A DNA stretch of 46,221 bases from a virus, in the UHGV virus genome UHGV-0126501. One strand, 5' to 3'. The notes under the pieces are model-generated. The model was given only the letters and a program-made list of their open reading frames with translations, did no database searches and had not been told where the DNA came from. Below are positions 4,962 through 20,792 of this stretch, one piece after another (position 1 is the stretch's first letter; every line of letters begins with the position of its first letter). The position numbers and the translations under genes are program-made.

Positions 4962-5171
4962 ATGCCAAACAAGCCAATACATCCGCTTATTGAAAAACAG
5001 ATTGAATGCCTGGTTAATCAACTCAGGCAATCAGGGTTATTAAAAACTCATTCAGAGCTAGGACTCACAGAATCGGCATTCGACGATAAATTAAATAATG
5101 CGCTTTATAATGGCGTCATTGATTACAATCGTGGTGCTGGTCGTCGTGGCCCTGCTGGTACAGCTTTGTAA
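4962..5171 (+). CDS. Small hypothetical protein
   Basis: ATG at 4962 preceded by GGAGGA; 69 aa; convergent with the leftward early operon. Confidence 0.4.
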   Translation: MPNKPIHPLIEKQIECLVNQLRQSGLLKTHSELGLTESAFDDKLNNALYNGVIDYNRGAGRRGPAGTAL

Positions 5172-5810
5172 TTACCAGTTAATCCATAGCGGATAGTGTT
5201 CAGCATAAATATAGCTATACACATCCAGGTTGTATTTGCGGTCTGTCCTTAGCAGGTCGCAAATACACGCCGCAGCTTCCAGGGCGGAAGCTTTGTTGCT
5301 GAATAACCATGTAGCAACATTCCAGCGATTATCTTTATCCCACTCTTTTGCGAGAGCTGACACCACGAAGGAGCCGTTGGTGTTGCCATCAAATACTTCC
5401 GTTTCCAGATTTTTAAGTAATGCCTGGTGAATTTTTGCCAGGTATTCAGTCGGAATTTCGCCACGGATTCGGATAAGGTTGTCATAAACAAACATGTTTC
5501 CCGCATATGGCGATTTTTCTTCCTTGTTTTTTAAACCAGCATCATGAGCAAACTGATCAATTTCTTCTTCCGTTGGTTTCGTGTTGATGTTTTGCGCTGT
5601 CGTTTCTGCAATGAGTTTTGCTTTATTTTCTACACAATGATTGTTTGTGAACGAATATGAATACAGTCCGGTAAAAGAATTGCGGACATGATTTGATAAA
5701 TTTCTGATGAACAGTTTATCTACTAATATCATTGGGTTCCGCGCCAGTTGCGAGCGAATCACATCAGCGGCCATTTCCTGTATTGAAATTGGTAAATCTT
5801 TAAATTCCAT
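5172..5810 (-). CDS. Hypothetical protein in the leftward early (pL-type) operon
   Basis: Long ORF; ATG at 5810 has GAGGT 5 nt upstream (the ORF-track start at 5822 has no SD). No recognisable motifs. Confidence 0.55.
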   Translation of the reverse strand: MEFKDLPISIQEMAADVIRSQLARNPMILVDKLFIRNLSNHVRNSFTGLYSYSFTNNHCVENKAKLIAETTAQNINTKPTEEEIDQFAHDAGLKNKEEKSPYAGNMFVYDNLIRIRGEIPTEYLAKIHQALLKNLETEVFDGNTNGSFVVSALAKEWDKDNRWNVATWLFSNKASALEAAACICDLLRTDRKYNLDVYSYIYAEHYPLWINW

Positions 5811-12450: not shown

Positions 12451-12730
12451 AAGGAAACAAAACAGAAACAACAATTGCCGTTATCTGTTGTTACCATGGC
12501 AAGTAAACGTATCTCAGGCGAGCGCATTGCGCCGTTCTGACGCAGATAAACTAGCCTGGATAGATGGTGCTGGCAATAAAAAATAGCGTTTTCTTATCGG
12601 TGTCGGTAAGATTGCTGCGGGTGCTTGAGGCTGTCTGCCTCGGGCATGCCACTGTAAGGCAGACAGAGAAAAGCCCCAGTTAACATTACGCGTCTTGCAG
12701 GACGCTTAACATTAATCTGAGGCCCAATCT

Positions 12731-12943
12731 ATGCCATACAAACATAGGTTAGCCTCTTACGTGCCGAAAGGCAAGGAGAAGCAGGCTATGAAGCAGCAAA
12801 AGGCGATGTTAATCGCCCTGATCGTCATCTGTTTAACCGTCATAGTGACGGCACTGGTAACGAGGAAAGATCTCTGCGAGGTACGAATCCGAACCGGCCA
12901 GACGGAGGTTGCTGTTTTCGTGGACTACGAATCTGAGAAGTAA
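12731..12943 (+). CDS. Mok-like in-frame N-terminal extension of Hok (modulator of killing)
   Basis: Upstream in-frame ATG gives a 70-aa product, analogous to chromosomal MokC/HokC where Mok is an N-terminally extended Hok. Confidence 0.45.
   Translation: MPYKHRLASYVPKGKEKQAMKQQKAMLIALIVICLTVIVTALVTRKDLCEVRIRTGQTEVAVFVDYESEK
12788..12943 (+). CDS. hok: Hok/Gef-family type I toxin (small membrane peptide)
   Basis: MKQQKAMLIALIVICLTVIVTALVTRKDLCEVRIRTGQTEVAVF... matches the Hok/Gef signature (TM helix, LTRKxLCE, periplasmic tail); SD AAGGAGAAG. Confidence 0.9.
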   Translation: MKQQKAMLIALIVICLTVIVTALVTRKDLCEVRIRTGQTEVAVFVDYESEK

Positions 12944-14225: not shown

Positions 14226-15275
14226 GTGCGGGTATTGCTTAGACCTGTTCTGGTACCGGAACTCGGGCTGGTGGTCCTTAAGCCGGGCCGTGAATCCATG
14301 CGGGTATTTCATAATCCCCGGGTGCTGGTGGAGCCGGAACCGAAAAGCATGCGCGGTCTGCCGTCCGGCATTGTCCCTGCCGTTCGCCAGCCGCTGGCGG
14401 AGGATAAATCATTACAGCCATTTTTCAGTGATGAGCGGGTGATTCGTGCTGCCGGCGGCGCTGGTGCACTGTCTGACTGGCTCCTGCGTCATGTTAAATC
14501 CTGCCAGTGGCCTCATGGTGACTATCACCACAGCGAAACCGTCATACATCGTTACGGTACCGGCGCGATGGTGTTGTGCTGGCACTGCGACAACCAGCTG
14601 CGTGACCAGACCTCCGAATCACTCGGGCAGCTTGCTCAACAAAATCTGGCAACCTGGATAATTGACGCCATCCGTCACGCAATAAATGGCGCGCAGGAGC
14701 GGGAGTTATCGCTGGCTGAATTGTACTGCTGGGCTGCTTTAAATAATGTGGTGGATGCCATAACCGAAAATATGGCGCGTCGAATCCTGAAACGTTCGGG
14801 TGAAAAAATCCTTTCCGTATACCGCGAAAGCGACATCATACCGGGAGAGCAGACAGCCACCAGCATACTGAAGCAGCGCACAAAAAATATTGTGCTATCG
14901 CTTCACGTCCACCAGCAACAGAACTCACCGCAGGAAAAGGCGGTGGTCAGCATTGCTGTTGATCCGGAGTCTCCGGAATCTTTCATGAGGCGACCTAAAC
15001 GTCGCCGTTGGATAAATGAGAAATACACTCGCTGGGTAAAGACACAGCCGTGTGCGTGTTGTGGTAAGCCAGCCGACGATCCCCATCACCTGATTGGTCA
15101 TGGTCAGGGCGGAATGGGAACAAAATCCCACGATATTTTCACGCTACCGCTGTGTCGGGAGCATCACAACGAGCTTCATGCGGATCCGCTGGCGTTCGAA
15201 GAAAAGCATGGTTCCCAGGTTGATTTAATTTTTCGTTTTCTTGATCACGCCTTTGCAACTGGCGTGCTTGGGTAA
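14226..15275 (+). CDS. DUF968-type protein with C-terminal HNH-like Cys/His motif (YdfU-like)
   Basis: GTG start 4 nt after GGAGG; C-terminal CACCGKPADDPHHLIGHGQGG...CREHHNELH. Confidence 0.6.
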   Translation: MRVLLRPVLVPELGLVVLKPGRESMRVFHNPRVLVEPEPKSMRGLPSGIVPAVRQPLAEDKSLQPFFSDERVIRAAGGAGALSDWLLRHVKSCQWPHGDYHHSETVIHRYGTGAMVLCWHCDNQLRDQTSESLGQLAQQNLATWIIDAIRHAINGAQERELSLAELYCWAALNNVVDAITENMARRILKRSGEKILSVYRESDIIPGEQTATSILKQRTKNIVLSLHVHQQQNSPQEKAVVSIAVDPESPESFMRRPKRRRWINEKYTRWVKTQPCACCGKPADDPHHLIGHGQGGMGTKSHDIFTLPLCREHHNELHADPLAFEEKHGSQVDLIFRFLDHAFATGVLG

Positions 15276-15287
15276 AAGAGGTGACTG

Positions 15288-15659
15288 ATGCTCATAGATT
15301 TGGTTTTGCCTTACCCGCCGACGGTGAACACCTACTGGCGACGTCGTGGCAGCACATATTTTGTATCAAAAGCCGGTGAGCGTTATCGCCGGGATGTGGC
15401 ACTTATTGTTCGCCAGCAGCGGTTGAAATTAAACCTGTCCGGAAGGCTGGCGATAAAGATCATTGCAGAGCCGCCGGATAAGCGCCGTCGTGACATGGAC
15501 AATATTCTGAAAGCACCACTGGATGCACTGACACATGCGGGGTTGCTTATCGACGACGAGCAGTTTGATGAAATCAATATAGTGCGCGGTAAGGTCGTTC
15601 CTGGTGGTCGGTTGGGCGTGAAGATTTGCGAAATTAGAGGTGATAGTAATGGGGCGTGA
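15288..15659 (+). CDS. rusA: RusA-family Holliday junction resolvase
   Basis: 123 aa; LPYPPTVNTYW...RRRDMDNILKAPLDALTHAGLLIDDEQF matches RusA conserved regions including the catalytic Asp cluster. Confidence 0.85.
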   Translation: MLIDLVLPYPPTVNTYWRRRGSTYFVSKAGERYRRDVALIVRQQRLKLNLSGRLAIKIIAEPPDKRRRDMDNILKAPLDALTHAGLLIDDEQFDEINIVRGKVVPGGRLGVKICEIRGDSNGA

Positions 15660-16005
15660 TATGTATGAGGTTTTAGACCGCTGGGGGGCATGGGCTGCAG
15701 CAGAAAATAGTGGTGTCGATTGGCAGTCGATAGCGGCAGGCTTCAAGGGGCTTCTACCACACGGTAAAAAGTCACGCCTCCAGTGTGATGATGATGAAGG
15801 TATTATGATAGACGGTTGTGTGGCCCGCCTGCGGAAATATAAACCAGAAGAATATGAGCTGATCATTGCCCACTTTGTTATCGGGATTTCACTGAGGACG
15901 ATTGCAAAAAGAAGAAAATGTTGTGATGGAACTATTCGCAAAGAACTTCAAACAGCTATGGGGTTCATATCAGGTGTTTTGTCGCTGTTAAGCGAAGCCC
16001 AATAG
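15649..16005 (+). CDS. Late-gene antiterminator Q-like protein (short Q family)
   Basis: Position after rusA as in DLP12/lambdoid phages; ATG at 15649 with AGAGG SD, overlapping the rusA stop; Cys-containing C-terminal half. Confidence 0.55.
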   Translation: MGRDMYEVLDRWGAWAAAENSGVDWQSIAAGFKGLLPHGKKSRLQCDDDEGIMIDGCVARLRKYKPEEYELIIAHFVIGISLRTIAKRRKCCDGTIRKELQTAMGFISGVLSLLSEAQ

Positions 16006-16017
16006 GGCTTCGCTTAA
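15988..16017. other. 13-bp perfect stem hairpin spanning the convergent stop codons of Q (+) and the C5-methyltransferase (-)
   Basis: TTAAGCGAAGCCC-AATA-GGGCTTCGCTTAA; no U-tract on either side. Confidence 0.6.
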
Positions 16018-17054
16018 ATCGACGAAATTATAGCTCTCCCAAGTGCTTCAGCCATCTTGGGAGGAACCGCATTCCCAATTTGTTTTGCTTTTGATACTAA
16101 CGACCCCGTGAAGGAATAGTCTAATGGGAATGTCTGTAATAACGCAGCCTCTCTAACTGAAATTGCTCGGTCTTGTTCAGGATGCCCGAAACGTCCATTC
16201 GAATAGCTTATACACCTAGTCGTTAAGCCACTTGCAGGTTTGTCCCATGAAAGACGTCCATAAACATCCGTATGCCCTTTATATTTCTTATGGCATTCTA
16301 AGATCAAATTCTCAGGCCAAGACTCCCTTCCTTTTCCCTCTGGGGTAGCTTTTATGCGTTTAATATTCAGTTCGGACAGCCTGGCTGCTGTGTGATCAAT
16401 TATCTCTTTATGAGTTTCACCTGCAGCTATAGGTGGTAAATTACCGATCCAATCTCTTACCGTTGCAAACGGAGTTTCTACTCCGTCATGAGTTTTGGGT
16501 GGGAGCTTAATATGTGTGTGTCTTGACGCCAGCAAAACAAAACGTTCACGGGTCTGAGGAACTCCGAACCACAAAGCAGGAACAACACCAAAATCAACGT
16601 TGTAGTTATGATGAGTTAAAACTTCAAGAAATTTCTGGAAGTTTCCGTTATTGATATCGACGTTTTGGATTCCAGGCACATTTTCTATCAGTACGAAATC
16701 AGGAACATAATAAGATACAAAACGTGCAAATTCAGTCAGGAGATCTTTCCTGGGATCGTCGTTGTTCCGTGTTTTGTTCTGTTTTGAGAATGGTTGACAT
16801 GGGGCACATCCGCAAAACAAAGTCAGGGCTTTACATTTTTTTGAGTCAGAAATTAGATGATTAATATCTTCAACATGTGTATCTTTGATATCACCATTGA
16901 TGAAATGTGCTAATGGATTGTTTTTCTTGAAGGTATTAGACGAGTCTAGATCAATATCTAAACCAAATATAATTTCCATACCCACTGCTTTTAGGCCTGC
17001 ACTAGTGCCTCCGCAGCCGGAAAAAAAATCGTATACATGTATCTTTTTAGTCAT
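16014..17054 (-). CDS. DNA (cytosine-5)-methyltransferase
   Basis: Motif I FSGCGG, motif IV PCQPFS, motif VI ENV, motif VIII QTRERF, motif X GNAVPP. Confidence 0.9.
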   Translation of the reverse strand: MTKKIHVYDFFSGCGGTSAGLKAVGMEIIFGLDIDLDSSNTFKKNNPLAHFINGDIKDTHVEDINHLISDSKKCKALTLFCGCAPCQPFSKQNKTRNNDDPRKDLLTEFARFVSYYVPDFVLIENVPGIQNVDINNGNFQKFLEVLTHHNYNVDFGVVPALWFGVPQTRERFVLLASRHTHIKLPPKTHDGVETPFATVRDWIGNLPPIAAGETHKEIIDHTAARLSELNIKRIKATPEGKGRESWPENLILECHKKYKGHTDVYGRLSWDKPASGLTTRCISYSNGRFGHPEQDRAISVREAALLQTFPLDYSFTGSLVSKAKQIGNAVPPKMAEALGRAIISSI

Positions 17055-17057
17055 TAT

Positions 17058-18848
17058 CTACCTCACTCTTGGTCTGATAGTATCATTATCTAAAAAGATT
17101 TGCAGCAACTCTCGAGTTTTCGTTAACATTTCATGATCATTCGGTATTTTATTTAGCATTCTAATTTGAGTTTCAAAGATATCATCACTAGTAACATTAT
17201 CCAGCCCAGTATCGAGTTTACAAATTTCCTTAGTAATTTGTTTAGCATCTTGAACGTCTTTCGAAATTAATTCTTTATATTCCTTGTAGTCTCCATAGAC
17301 ATTTTCAATAAGAAATATTTCAGGCGTGTAAACAGGAAGGAAACCGATGCTATCGTGAATGAAATCGATGAAATCTCTTTGCATTTTATATTTTTGGCTA
17401 TGATTAGCTACACCTTTAGAGCCATCGCAGTTAAATTTGATGTCTTGGTTTGTTATTGATTTTATAATATCCTGAAGATTAGGGTTCTCGTTTTCTGGTA
17501 TTGAGTCAGAGGTTGGGTAGTTATCAACAATAGATTGATCACCATCTAGCAAAAAAATAACGTTTTTAACGTTAGCAACACATAATGGGGCTGCTAAAGT
17601 TTGAAAAATACTTCCGGCCCCTCCAGGAAAGTGCTTGACTTCAAAGGAGTTTAATAATGCTTCACCACCTGCTTTAAGAGCTTTCTCTACAAACCTCTTA
17701 GCCAAGCGATCTTCTACAATAACTGTTCTCTTCTCGATTCGCTCACCAAGGATGAAGAAAGATTCTTCTGGGCTGACATTTTGCAGAACATCAACTTTTC
17801 CTAATTTATCATTCAGGCAAAATAATTTTATAGCATTTTTCGGTAAGTCTTTTACTATTGTTGATGAATGAGTGGATATCACAATTTGATGTTTCTTTTT
17901 AATTGCTTGTTCAGATAAAAATTCCATTAATTGGCATTGTGCTGAAGGGTGAAGCGATACTTCAGGTTCGTCTAAAAGAATTAGTGATGCGTTTGGACTG
18001 TCTATTAGTTTATGTACTAAAATAGATACGGCGAATTCTCCACTACCAGCGAATGCTTCAGAATATTTTAAGTTTTCTGACTGAAGTATAATTGTTGGAG
18101 CTTTGTCATTCGTAAATAAGCAATGCTCGATAAGTCTAATACTAGTGTATTTTCGCCCTAAAATTTTGCTGATTGCCTCAACTTTATTTTTGCCTAATAA
18201 AGTATTGACAAAGAGTTTATCTTTTTTACCTTTGTGGGGTTGATATTTTTTTAGATCGTTATCGATGATTTCTCTTAGCATTTGACTGCGTTTTCTAAGA
18301 TAATCCTTCTTGGGATATGTATGAAAGTCAGAATGATAAAAGAATTTATCGAATGCACTTATCGTTGCTCTGAAATCTAAATAGATTACATTTTTATCAA
18401 TGGCTTTCCATCGTGTTTTTAATTGGTTATCCGAAAGTATTGTATCAGGCATAGTAGCCATATTATCTGATTTTAGAGGCCTAGAAGGTTCCCAGTAGTC
18501 AGGATCATTTTCTTTAGAAATTCGGGTTTTGATTACTTCAACAATAGAATCAGTAGCTTTATCATAATATCCATAAATGAATCTTGAGCGACCACCGTCT
18601 TTAATTTCATCCACATCTGTAGAAAACCATAGGCTACCTAATGAATAGTTGTTTGGTGAGCCGAAAAGGGCTCTTAAAACTGAGCTTTTATTCGTTCCAT
18701 TTTGACCGACCAACGCCGTGACTGGATAATCAAAATCGATTTTGCTTCCTTCGGCGAGGTTTTTGAAAAATGGGAAACGAATATGTCTAATAAATGGCTC
18801 AATCTGAGCGGATGCCATAATTTGTTTTAGTTTTAAATGGTTGTTCAT
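17058..18848 (-). CDS. OLD-family-like ABC ATPase with C-terminal TOPRIM-like acidic motifs (putative ATP-dependent nuclease)
   Basis: P-loop GQNGTNKSS, Walker B/D-loop LILLDEPEVSLHP, C-terminal VIVEDR and LLDGDQS motifs; 3 nt upstream of the C5-MTase on the same strand; AT-rich. Confidence 0.65.
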   Translation of the reverse strand: MNNHLKLKQIMASAQIEPFIRHIRFPFFKNLAEGSKIDFDYPVTALVGQNGTNKSSVLRALFGSPNNYSLGSLWFSTDVDEIKDGGRSRFIYGYYDKATDSIVEVIKTRISKENDPDYWEPSRPLKSDNMATMPDTILSDNQLKTRWKAIDKNVIYLDFRATISAFDKFFYHSDFHTYPKKDYLRKRSQMLREIIDNDLKKYQPHKGKKDKLFVNTLLGKNKVEAISKILGRKYTSIRLIEHCLFTNDKAPTIILQSENLKYSEAFAGSGEFAVSILVHKLIDSPNASLILLDEPEVSLHPSAQCQLMEFLSEQAIKKKHQIVISTHSSTIVKDLPKNAIKLFCLNDKLGKVDVLQNVSPEESFFILGERIEKRTVIVEDRLAKRFVEKALKAGGEALLNSFEVKHFPGGAGSIFQTLAAPLCVANVKNVIFLLDGDQSIVDNYPTSDSIPENENPNLQDIIKSITNQDIKFNCDGSKGVANHSQKYKMQRDFIDFIHDSIGFLPVYTPEIFLIENVYGDYKEYKELISKDVQDAKQITKEICKLDTGLDNVTSDDIFETQIRMLNKIPNDHEMLTKTRELLQIFLDNDTIRPRVR

Positions 18849-19102
18849 TTTTTCGACTAAAGTGATGTGAAGGTAAGGTATTTTACAAAAATGCTAACGC
18901 GTACGCAAAAGCTACAGTATCGTGTTAAGAGTGGTTACTTCGCCACACAGCTTAAACCCGCCGCCGTGCGGTTTTTTTTTGCCCTGGACGTGGGGGCAGT
19001 ACGGTAAACGTTTCGGTGGTTGTGGATACCAACTTTTCACCTTGCTGGCTTTTTCGACAAGAGTTATTGGTATGTCACGTTAACCAGAAAAGGGAAAAAG
19101 AC

Positions 19103-19300
19103 ATGCTAAAACAGCAGGATATGACCGAAACCGCCAGAGTGGTGTTTAATGAATTAAGCGTCACCGAACCGGCGACCGTCGGGGAAATTGCGCAGAATAC
19201 GTACCTTTCACGCGAACGCTGTCAGTTAATACTGACCCAGCTTGTTATGGCGGGTCTGGCAGATTATCAGTTCGGTTGTTACAGACGCCTTCCTCAGTGA
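19103..19300 (+). CDS. Small putative winged-helix DNA-binding protein
   Basis: 65-aa ORF from ATG at 19103; ...VGEIAQNTYLSRERCQLILTQLVMAGL... looks like a recognition helix/wing; upstream of the adenine MTase. Confidence 0.35.
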   Translation: MLKQQDMTETARVVFNELSVTEPATVGEIAQNTYLSRERCQLILTQLVMAGLADYQFGCYRRLPQ

Positions 19301-19450
19301 AGGCTTTTTTATTTGTGGTAATGGGCGGCTGGTGGGTGTTAGCGGCACCTGCCAGCCATCTGCTCATGCGTTGGGGTCACAAGCAAACCTCAGGCCCATC
19401 TGCTTTGCGCAAAAGCGGAATGAGCCTATCAGAGAAGTGCTTATTGATCT

Positions 19451-20497
19451 ATGGCCAATACTGTAAAAATATCCAGTTGTGAGTTAATCAACGCTGATTG
19501 CCTGGAATTTATCCAGACCTTACCGGAAAACTCTGTCGATCTGATAGTCACAGACCCGCCATACTTTAAAGTGAAGCCTGAGGGCTGGGATAACCAGTGG
19601 AAGGGCGACGATGATTACCTGAAATGGCTGGATCAGTGTCTGGCGCAATTCTGGCGGGTACTGAAACCTGCCGGAAGTCTCTACCTGTTCTGTGGTCATC
19701 GCCTGGCATCTGATATCGAAATCATGATGCGTGAGCGCTTTAATGTGCTGAACCACATTATCTGGGCGAAGCCGTCCGGACGCTGGAACGGATGCAACAA
19801 GGAAAGCCTGCGGGCGTATTTCCCGGCAACAGAACGCATTCTGTTTGCAGAACATTATCAGGGGCCATACCAGCCCAAAAATGACGGCTATGCGGCAAAG
19901 GGGCGCGAGCTTAAGCAGCACGTGATGGCTCCGCTGATTTCTTACTTTCGTGATGCGCGTGAATCACTGGGGATAACGTCAAAACAGATAGCTGAAGCCA
20001 CCGGAAAGAAAAACATGGCTTCGCACTGGTTTGGTACCAGTCAGTGGCAGTTACCGAATGAGGCCGATTACAGTAAACTACAGGCGCTGTTTGCACGTGT
20101 GGCGGCAGAAAAACACCAGCGCGGTGAACTGGAGCAGCCACACCACCAGCTGGTCAGCACATACAGCGAACTGAACCGGCAATATGCCAGCCTGCTGGAG
20201 GAATACAAATCACTGCGGCGTTATTTTTCCGTATCGGCTGTCGTTCCTTATACGGATGTCTGGACGCACAAGCCCGTGCAGTATTATCCGGGCAAACATC
20301 CCTGTGAAAAACCGGCGGATATGTTGCGTCAGATAATTACTGCCAGCAGTCGTCCTGGCGATTTGGTCGCAGATTTTTTTATGGGGTCGGGGTCGACAAT
20401 AAAAGCGGCACTGTCGCTGGGACGCAGGGCGATTGGCGTGGAACTGGAAGAGGAACGTTTTAATCAGACGGTCAGAGAAATAACGAAAGATTTTTAA
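19451..20497 (+). CDS. DNA methyltransferase, beta-class amino-MTase (N6-adenine or N4-cytosine)
   Basis: Motif IV DPPY (LIVTDPPYF) precedes C-terminal motif I FxGxG (DFFMGSGST). Confidence 0.85.
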   Translation: MANTVKISSCELINADCLEFIQTLPENSVDLIVTDPPYFKVKPEGWDNQWKGDDDYLKWLDQCLAQFWRVLKPAGSLYLFCGHRLASDIEIMMRERFNVLNHIIWAKPSGRWNGCNKESLRAYFPATERILFAEHYQGPYQPKNDGYAAKGRELKQHVMAPLISYFRDARESLGITSKQIAEATGKKNMASHWFGTSQWQLPNEADYSKLQALFARVAAEKHQRGELEQPHHQLVSTYSELNRQYASLLEEYKSLRRYFSVSAVVPYTDVWTHKPVQYYPGKHPCEKPADMLRQIITASSRPGDLVADFFMGSGSTIKAALSLGRRAIGVELEEERFNQTVREITKDF

Positions 20498-20715
20498 TTC
20501 AGTGATGATATAAGTTGTATATTTCTGATACAAATGTATACACATATTTAAAACTGAACACCAAATATATTTTTGATGTCTGAAAAACTGTCGTTAGTAT
20601 TCTGACTGGTCCGGAAGGTGGTTGTCTTTATGTTCACAGGGGTGTTGCTTGCCACCGGAAAGACCAGTGCTGGCTTTCCTGGTAATTCGTGTGATTCCGG
20701 AAGCCAGTACAGTAT

Positions 20716-20792
20716 GCGGGTATCGTATAATGGCTATTACCTCAGCTTTCCAGGCTGATGATGTGGGTTCGATTCCCGTCACCCGCTCTCCA
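20716..20792 (+). tRNA. tRNA-Gly(UCC)-like element, probably degenerate
   Basis: Cloverleaf can be drawn: acceptor GCGGGTA, D-arm with GG, anticodon stem TCAGC/GCTGA with loop TTTCCAG (anticodon TCC), T-loop GGTTCGATTCC. But A7-C66 mismatch, two G-U pairs in the T-stem, and a TCTCCA 3' end instead of CCA. Confidence 0.45.

Follow-up and report, generated by a model that had tools for sequence, protein, structure and literature searches.

In UHGV-0126501, a lambdoid prophage of 46,221 nucleotides (nt) called the window below, the gene of an M.EcoGII-family adenine DNA methyltransferase (MTase) is preceded by a conserved, structured leader RNA, which separates it from the gene of a small winged-helix (wH) protein. 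The leader precedes essentially every member of this MTase family examined (299 loci). Together with an adjoining hairpin, P0, and its tight linkage to the MTase gene, it constitutes a new element for which we found neither an Rfam family nor a description; literature keyword searches returned no paper on the small open reading frame (ORF) or on the leader, which is not proof of absence. The evidence as a whole is best explained by a late phage module composed of the wH gene, the leader, and the MTase gene, which would be Q dependent, anti-restriction in function, and translationally gated, a reading to which we assign a probability of roughly 70%. The coordinates of all features are given in Table 1.

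The spacer between the wH stop codon and the MTase start codon measures 142 to 154 nt in 23 of 24 loci (the window and its relatives), and the leader is better conserved in sequence than the genes on either side. A covariance model derived from it (R1; 142 positions, 35 pairs) finds one copy in the window and one per related locus, with scores ranging from 79.6 to 168 bits, the lowest (79.6) being found in Providencia-type phages. After pattern scans of IMG/VR, the 299 loci comprised 134 distinct leaders. A search of the whole window against Rfam at the gathering threshold reported nothing apart from sok and tRNA, and only chance-level matches were obtained for positions 18850 to 19520 at E<=10, so that the leader fits no family. 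In one locus (L022, positions 5168 to 5302), the wH gene is kept while the leader is degenerate and the MTase gene is replaced by an unrelated 62-aa ORF.

Covariation supports a fold, Fold A, in which helices P1 to P3 form a three-way junction followed by hairpins P4 and P5. In alignments fitted to the model, the tip of P2 and P4 falls out of register from one leader type to another; both were therefore omitted from the fold comparison. Across 85 distinct sequences, 89.8% of the alignment cells assigned to Fold A are paired, versus 24 to 44% when the partners are slid, and 12 pairs change on both sides, compared to 4.4 +/- 1.4 in shuffles. The outer P3 pair (58-84), for instance, occurs as U-A (33 sequences), C-G (31), or A-U (11), the P3 internal loop is converted to Watson-Crick pairs in some phages (TCGCCCGT/ACGGGCGA), and P2 is wholly re-coded in Providencia-type leaders (GACUGUAAAGGUG/CACCCUUACAGUC). 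P1 was also recovered in 71 of 71 leaders when RNAalifold was applied to an unfitted MAFFT alignment of diverse sequences. The predicted folding energy of the leader is -61.4 kcal/mol (z=-3.8) on the + strand and -46.1 kcal/mol (z=-2.0) on the - strand; this asymmetry, together with the presence of G-U pairs, designates the + strand as the functional one.

The same leaders can be drawn in an alternative fold, Fold B, which is plausible but not established. In this predicted structure, the 5' arm of P1 re-pairs with GCUCA of the P3 5' arm (19362-19366), and GGUCA (19375-19379) pairs with UGAUC (19445-19449), i.e., with positions -6 to -2 relative to the MTase AUG at 19451; further pairings join GCCCA to UGAGC and AAGCx to yGCUU. 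A Fold B-type structure is the single-sequence minimum free energy (MFE) prediction for 74 of 90 leaders and exceeds Fold A in stability by 5.5 kcal/mol on average. Pairing reaches 95.1% of cells, with 10 pairs changing on both sides versus 4.0 in shuffles, and pair 92-128 has switched from G-C to A-U in two separate lineages. Another helix considered beside the start codon, ATCAG/CTGAT, was rejected because a frequent U-to-C change in it is uncompensated, as judged by eye and not counted.

Hairpin P0 is terminator-like (MFE of -8.9 kcal/mol, z=-2.1). Its arms co-vary across genera (GCCUCC/GGGGGC, GCUGCC/GGCAG, and CCUCC/GGAGG), and it is retained in loci that do not carry the wH gene.

Several smaller features of the leader were also recorded. 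At 19321-19344, an invariant AUG in the 5' arm of P1 opens an upstream ORF (uORF) that starts with MGGWWVL in most leaders, with MGD and MSG variants, and that in many E. coli-type leaders stops just past an overlap with the MTase AUG. No Shine-Dalgarno (SD) sequence is present ahead of the uORF AUG. A conserved uORF was nevertheless rejected as a candidate since the reading frame opened by this AUG spans anywhere from 3 to 58 codons across 91 unique leaders; its length not being conserved, the conservation of the leader is not coding. A 9-nt direct repeat, CCATCTGCT, flanks P3 (19356-19364 and 19396-19404), and one IMG/VR locus (L049) displays a natural deletion exactly between the two copies, which removes P3 and the 3' arm of P1. 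In one divergent leader type (L237, L239, L251, L234, L259, and L222), a second copy of the P1 3'-arm motif (AAGGCCCA) is found 9 to 16 nt before the MTase AUG, where it replaces the 3' arm of P5. Finally, a nearly invariant GATC, a Dam site, occupies 19446-19449, and its pairing partner reads GATC instead of GGTC in several lineages. By analogy with the Dam-dependent control of Mu mom, this GATC may be relevant.

The MTase itself is, by sequence, a typical representative of the M.EcoGII family, a well-known group of adenine DNA MTases of phages. The original prediction had recognized a beta-class amino-MTase from a DPPY motif placed before FxGxG, and the assignment is borne out by the motif positions read directly from the ORF: DPPY at aa 35 to 38 (nt 19553-19564), a target recognition domain (TRD) at about aa 160 to 237 (nt 19928-20161), and FMGSG at aa 310 to 314 (nt 20378-20392). 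The order motif IV, TRD, motif I therefore places the enzyme in the beta class. In agreement, the protein matches Pfam PF01555 (N6_N4_Mtase) over aa 29 to 340 (E=6.3e-45, 154 bits for a cut-off of 26.7), and its sequence matches in the PDB are beta-class amino-MTases throughout, including RsrI, CcrM, MboIIA, and PvuII. Alignment with M.EcoGII gives 298 identical residues out of 345 (86%, E=0) over the full length, including the four-helix bundle region of the TRD; the reference used here is a machine-read copy from the supplement of PMC11551740 with a few optical character recognition errors. Some of the residues that differ from M.EcoGII agree instead with reconstructed "SUPREM-clade" ancestors. 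The enzyme of phage 1720a-02, named in the literature as a close relative of M.EcoGII (PMC5778455), is 87% identical to that of the window.

M.EcoGII, like M.EcoGI, is a characterized enzyme of E. coli O104:H4 prophages; it methylates adenine in any sequence context, in DNA and, in vitro, in RNA (PMC5778455), and both M.EcoGI and M.EcoGII are described as unexpressed in the lysogen and deleterious upon expression (PMC5778455; PMC12707154). Homologues with about 93% aa similarity are non-specific according to REBASE-based annotation (PMC6602927), and a reconstruction study reports that the ancestors of the clade all retained adenine methylation of DNA and RNA (PMC11551740). We therefore infer from kinship that the window enzyme is likewise non-specific. 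Most probably, it acts as an orphan MTase against restriction; that the gene could encode an orphan, self-protecting phage enzyme was one of the two options put forward originally, and it fits both this kinship and the frequent occurrence of the module without the neighboring OLD-like/C5-MTase cassette described below. The MTase start codon has no SD sequence (CUUAUUGAUCUAUG), and the gene sits behind a terminator that is conserved after Q.

A small putative winged helix-turn-helix protein directly upstream of the MTase had also been proposed. The protein is a genuine, conserved winged helix of 65 aa, as judged from its conservation and structural modeling, and it is encoded upstream on the same strand, but 150 nt of conserved non-coding spacer intervene. 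Its ORF, preceded by an SD-like AAGGGAAAAAG, is kept at 63 to 67 aa in 23 of 24 species-representative genomes and occurs in Escherichia, Salmonella, Klebsiella, Citrobacter, Kluyvera, Buttiauxella, Mixta, Mangrovibacter, and Providencia; a collection of 5.8 billion proteins contains 334 clusters of it, all from Enterobacterales. The AlphaFold2 model (pLDDT of 89.4) has the canonical winged-helix topology, H1-b-H2-H3 followed by a beta-hairpin wing, in which the third helix corresponds to RCQLILTQLVMAGL, almost invariant among relatives. Foldseek relates the model to winged-helix domains (TMq up to 0.84), the top matches being those of IclR/MarR regulators, the dimerization domain of O-methyltransferases, and the RNA-binding domain of SelB. 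The match to Pfam TrmB is weak and below the cut-off (E=0.0026), no model of NCBIfam or PADLOC matches the protein, and the name given to it by NCBI is "TrmB family transcriptional regulator". It contains just two conserved cysteines (C40 and C59), and profile searches, including PHROGs and NCBIfam, gave no match to the Com family.

Among the nearest IMG/VR relatives of the MTase, all 77 loci with enough upstream sequence possess the wH gene, at an unchanged offset of 348 nt. For the 269 leader loci with enough flanking sequence, both genes are present in 257, the wH gene is missing in 10 (L205, L222, L256, L135, L138, L151, and four others), and the MTase gene is missing in 2. The wH protein is therefore not obligatory for MTase expression. 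The wH gene may itself be under translational control: its 5' untranslated region and start region are predicted to fold, with CUUGCUG pairing with CAGCAGG (codons 4 to 6) and GGUAUGUC with GACAUGCU (start codon), and matching inverted repeats recur in the SfV, Salmonella, and 1720a-02 loci.

The position of the module within the prophage suggests how it is transcribed. For loci that share the Q type, an alignment of the 270 nt upstream of the wH gene shows, conserved in this order, CTAACGCGTACGCAAAA, a TAnnnT hexamer 17 nt after TAACGC, TGTTAAGAGTGG, and a GC hairpin followed by a U-run (18895-18981). The CTAACGCGTACGCAAAA block and the hexamer are conserved in L003, L017, L028, L045, L050, L052, and L093, and they align with a promoter of SfV that is closer to consensus (TTGCAT-17-TAAGAT); TTGCAA-17-TAGGAT occurs in a like context, though not aligned, in the wH-less L138. 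TAACGC and the hexamer, which overlap the block, probably represent the late promoter pR'. The terminator, tR', is conserved in phiP27, SfV, 1720a-02, and other loci, and the annotation of SfV marks the homologous site as a rho-independent terminator that follows Q. A scan for sigma-70 consensus promoters returned nothing in 18849-19102 nor in the spacer between the wH and MTase genes. The order Q, terminator, small ORF, MTase, and then tRNAs, stx, or lysis genes is shared by SfV, phiP27, and 1720a-02. With the promoter and terminator so placed, the module would come first among the cargo of the late, Q-dependent operon, self-contained with its wH gene, leader RNA, and MTase gene.

From these elements, a sequence of events can be proposed. 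In the lysogen, transcription from pR' would halt at tR', and perhaps also at P0, so that no enzyme is made; upon induction, RNA polymerase modified by Q would read through. As the phage DNA replicates, the MTase would then methylate its adenines, showing little sequence specificity or none, and the methylated progeny DNA would be shielded from many restriction systems of the next host. Because non-specific methylation is toxic, the mRNA would bear a second lock: Fold B would pair the bases beside the SD-less start (OFF), while Fold A would free the start (ON). The wH protein would be the best candidate for a factor shifting the balance between the two folds, as Com does for mom in phage Mu. 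The family of the MTase, its genomic position, its independence from the cassette, and the existence, conservation, and base pairing of the leader are established here, and to them we add by analogy a translational switch and a role of the wH protein in it. The most specific version, in which the leader is a new bistable cis-regulatory RNA that gates a toxic MTase and is switched in trans by the wH protein, which would bind RNA as the SelB winged helix does, or in which the junction senses S-adenosylmethionine (SAM) or S-adenosylhomocysteine (SAH), is tentative, and we would sooner bet against it than for it.

Several observations weigh against the late-module reading or parts of it. The putative late promoter has a poor -35 element and was missed by the consensus scan. 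The leaders fall into two main clades, whose relatedness confounds part of the covariation, chiefly that of the helices specific to Fold B, and a blind mutual-information scan, dominated by this split, ranks many non-pairing column pairs equally high and does not separate Fold A from Fold B. The wH protein of the window carries a net charge of about -1, which is uncommon among nucleic-acid binders, and its best Foldseek matches include domains through which O-methyltransferases dimerize. In about 4% of the loci (the 10 of 269 mentioned above), the leader and MTase gene occur without the wH gene, the leader and a P0-like hairpin lying directly behind tR'. Lastly, divergence from M.EcoGII amounts to 14%, and to about 18% in the TRD, which could in principle alter specificity.

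In a different explanation, the wH protein acts as a conventional DNA-binding transcription factor, or else as a protein partner or inhibitor of the enzyme, and the spacer is conserved for reasons other than translation, as an RNA processing or stability element, a small RNA (sRNA), or a SAM or SAH riboswitch. The NCBI name of the protein, its closest folds (DNA-binding IclR/MarR domains and O-methyltransferase dimerization domains), and the loci that keep the leader without it all point this way; the three-way junction with its invariant nucleotides is riboswitch-like, and Hfq-bound sRNAs are located between the late promoter and the lysis genes in prophages of enterohemorrhagic E. coli (PMC7873438). 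However, Rfam yields no riboswitch or sRNA match even at E<=10, and no obvious operator repeats are common to the wH upstream region and the leader, where only short, inconsistent matches were seen (e.g., GCTGGTGGTTGT/GCTGGTGGGTGT in 1720a-02). The leader, moreover, invariably runs up to the MTase AUG at a fixed distance, it degenerates or disappears where the MTase has been lost, as in L022, and the predicted stable fold pairs exactly the bases beside the SD-less start codon. We regard this explanation as rather unlikely, albeit the strongest competitor. A further alternative concerns the enzyme, which might be a sequence-specific orphan with an epigenetic, replication, or packaging role, comparable to Dam in the methylation of the P1 pac site or to CcrM, instead of a promiscuous anti-restriction enzyme. 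Many phage orphan MTases are indeed site-specific regulators (PMC12707154), GATC is nearly invariant at -5 to -2 of the MTase start codon, and assays cover M.EcoGII and a few engineered relatives only. The full-length identity to M.EcoGII, TRD four-helix bundle region included, speaks against a site-specific enzyme, as do the "nonspecific" label of the ~93%-similar homologues and the lack of specificity of all tested clade members and reconstructed ancestors, making this alternative improbable.

The least probable alternative takes up the other option of the original prediction, which placed two kinds of modification around a single putative nuclease in one island and saw in the MTase a second specificity component of the same system; the MTase would then be the second modification subunit of a defense island, together with an OLD-like nuclease and a C5-MTase, and would shield host or prophage DNA. 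In the window, the module does lie next to, and in divergent orientation from, a cassette on the - strand (16014-18848) that encodes the C5-MTase and a 596-aa ATPase, and the latter matches models of defense ATPases (PADLOC HEC-04, E=2.7e-35; ATPase-Toprim_I-B, E=1.2e-23). Yet the two are apart far more often than together. The cassette is absent from all 80 IMG/VR loci that are the nearest viral relatives of the MTase, from phiP27, SfV, 1720a-02, and other Shiga toxin (Stx) phages, all of which carry the wH-MTase module, and from most of the 2914 E. coli genomes matching a 5.2-kb query from the window. Conversely, in E. coli G6/7 and relatives, the same Q and cassette (~84% DNA identity) abut an MTase remnant lacking its N-terminus, with no wH gene. 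DNA identity to E. coli relatives is ~84% for the cassette and 92 to 96% for the module, a difference that points to separate histories. The cassette is also located upstream of the putative late promoter and terminator and the module downstream; opposite strands were correctly noted at the outset, but since the 254-nt gap holds this promoter and terminator, it is not a simple shared control region. In phiP27, the equivalent slot after Q holds a GIY-YIG nuclease gene, and other inserts of 1.3 to 3 kb occupy it in L005, L017, L028, L045, L050, and L093, which gives the slot between Q and the late promoter the look of a hot spot for cargo. Judging from these comparisons, the cassette is an independent insertion between Q and pR' and not one system with the MTase module; the distribution already largely refutes the defense-island alternative, which we consider very improbable.

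The closest counterparts of the late module reading are found in already described systems, to which it can be compared on several points. M.EcoGII resembles the window enzyme in its ~86% aa identity, the order of its beta-class motifs, its size (349 versus 348 aa), and its prophage location; the two differ in 14% of residues, and the activity of the window protein is presumed from the likeness. Phage 1720a-02 shares with the window both the leader and the wH gene, the latter at 63 of 63 identical aa. In the passages of the M.EcoGII papers retrieved by keyword (PMC5778455, PMC11551740), neither the upstream wH gene nor the structured leader was found. Direct orthologues of the gene pair are orf47/orf48 in SfV and L23/L24 in phiP27, and the pair is present in dozens of Stx2 phages. 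In SfV and phiP27, it holds the same position after Q and the terminator, with wH proteins 94 to 100% and MTases 84 to 94% identical, and its annotation goes no further than hypothetical protein, TrmB family regulator, or DNA methyltransferase; the window, unlike these phages, has the OLD-like/C5-MTase cassette inserted between Q and the late promoter.

In phage Mu, Com binds the mom mRNA and opens a stem-loop, after which the toxic adenine modifier Mom is translated (PMC6483171), and in Mu-like prophages, com homologues precede the genes of the non-specific adenine MTases Hin1523, Hia5, and Nme1821 (PMC3299994). Likewise, here a small protein gene directly precedes that of a presumably promiscuous, host-toxic, adenine-modifying anti-restriction enzyme, the function would be a late one that is silent in lysogens, and the mRNA is structured around the start of the modifier gene, by prediction in the window and in Mu with opening by the small protein. 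The likeness extends further to FluMu and relatives, in which the modifier is itself a non-specific adenine MTase. This com-mom-type layout, with the wH gene ahead of the MTase gene on the same strand across a constant spacer of ~150 nt, is present in 257 of 269 loci. In contrast, the small protein of the window is a winged helix and not a Com zinc finger, its RNA is ~140 nt long with a three-way junction instead of a single stem-loop, and its phage is lambdoid with Q antitermination, whereas Mu relies on activation by C and on Dam/OxyR control. The enzymes are unrelated as well, Hia5 being Dam-like and that of the window belonging to the beta class; moreover, 4% of the loci have no wH gene, and RNA binding by the wH protein is hypothetical. 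The C proteins of restriction-modification systems provide a looser parallel, with a small helix-turn-helix-type gene upstream of and co-oriented with a DNA-modification gene and presumed to time expression. Unlike these, the window has no restriction endonuclease partner, no C-box repeats were found in it, its wH protein is of the TrmB/IclR type and not an Xre-type helix-turn-helix, and the 150-nt structured RNA has no counterpart.

The finding of the MTase is in itself routine, as a large share of the prophages of E. coli and other enterobacteria carry M.EcoGII-type genes behind Q, and the "island" is to be split, the cassette being an independent insertion in the hot spot for cargo that separates Q from the late promoter. 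M.EcoGII, however, is a widely used reagent (N6-methyladenine [m6A] footprinting, RNA methylation tools), the natural regulation of which has so far been known only as silence in the lysogen and toxicity upon expression. The leader may help to control the expression of M.EcoGII-type enzymes and, with or without the small protein, offers a concrete, testable mechanism for the silence of the family. If the proposal is true, the bistable leader and the wH protein would form a lambdoid analogue of Com-mom made of unrelated parts.

Table 1. Positions of the features of the module and its surroundings in the window.
Feature	Position	Strand	Remarks
NinG-like gene	14226-15275	+	
rusA	15288-15659	+	
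Q antiterminator	15640-16005	+	PF06530, E=3e-45
C5-cytosine MTase	16014-17054	-	
ABC-ATPase (OLD-like) protein, 596 aa	17058-18848	-	
Putative late promoter pR' (TAACGC-17 nt-TATCGT)	18895-18923	+	overlaps CTAACGCGTACGCAAAA, candidate Q-binding element
tR'-like intrinsic terminator (AAACCCGCCGCCGUGCGG then U9)	18955-18981	+	~50 nt past putative start; terminator scan
Structured 5' untranslated region and start region of wH gene (predicted)	19030-19125	+	MFE -23.7 kcal/mol, z=-2.65
wH protein, 65 aa	19103-19300	+	phrog_331 (function unknown); recognition helix RCQLILTQLVMAGL nearly invariant
Hairpin P0 (GCCUUC-CUCAGU-GAAGGC) and U-rich tract	19287-19313	+	overlaps wH stop codon; terminator scan
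Conserved structured leader RNA of MTase gene	19311-19453	+	covariance model R1, 167 bits
P1 (Fold A)	19322-19326 / 19394-19398	+	UGGGC/GCCCA
P2 (Fold A)	19327-19338 / 19346-19357	+	12-bp stem
P3 (Fold A)	19361-19368 / 19378-19385	+	third junction helix
P4 (Fold A)	19400-19406 / 19412-19418	+	hairpin
P5 (Fold A)	19421-19425 / 19439-19443	+	hairpin
M.EcoGII-family beta-class N6-adenine DNA MTase	19451-20497	+	348 aa
tRNA-Gly(UCC)	20716-20788		followed by holins and lysozyme

In the window, the NinG-like gene, rusA, and Q lie upstream of the module, and the tRNA, holin, and lysozyme genes downstream. The 5.2-kb query, which runs from Q to tRNA-Gly, matched 2914 of 5426 complete E. coli genomes, a count that concerns the query as a whole and is not specific to the module. 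Identity to the closest E. coli chromosomes is just 84 to 96%, and the host of the phage is therefore probably a close relative of E. coli rather than a typical E. coli. The sok antitoxin RNA reported by Rfam (RF01794, 117 bits) lies at 12619-12793 on the + strand, and this match implies a hok/sok-type toxin-antitoxin locus in the early/nin region of the prophage. Downstream of the MTase gene, tRNA-Gly(UCC) is the single tRNA detected in 20600-20788, while the equivalent stretch is annotated with tRNA-Thr and tRNA-Gly in E. coli relatives and holds Ile/Arg tRNAs in Stx phages; 20600-20715 may be a decayed tRNA. The enterobacterial module was also encountered on a 2.5-kb contig from a metagenome-assembled genome labeled "Bacillus sp." (L005, JBJEFM010000100.1), with 98% identity for the wH gene and 100% for the MTase over its first 120 aa, the label being probably a binning or contamination artifact.

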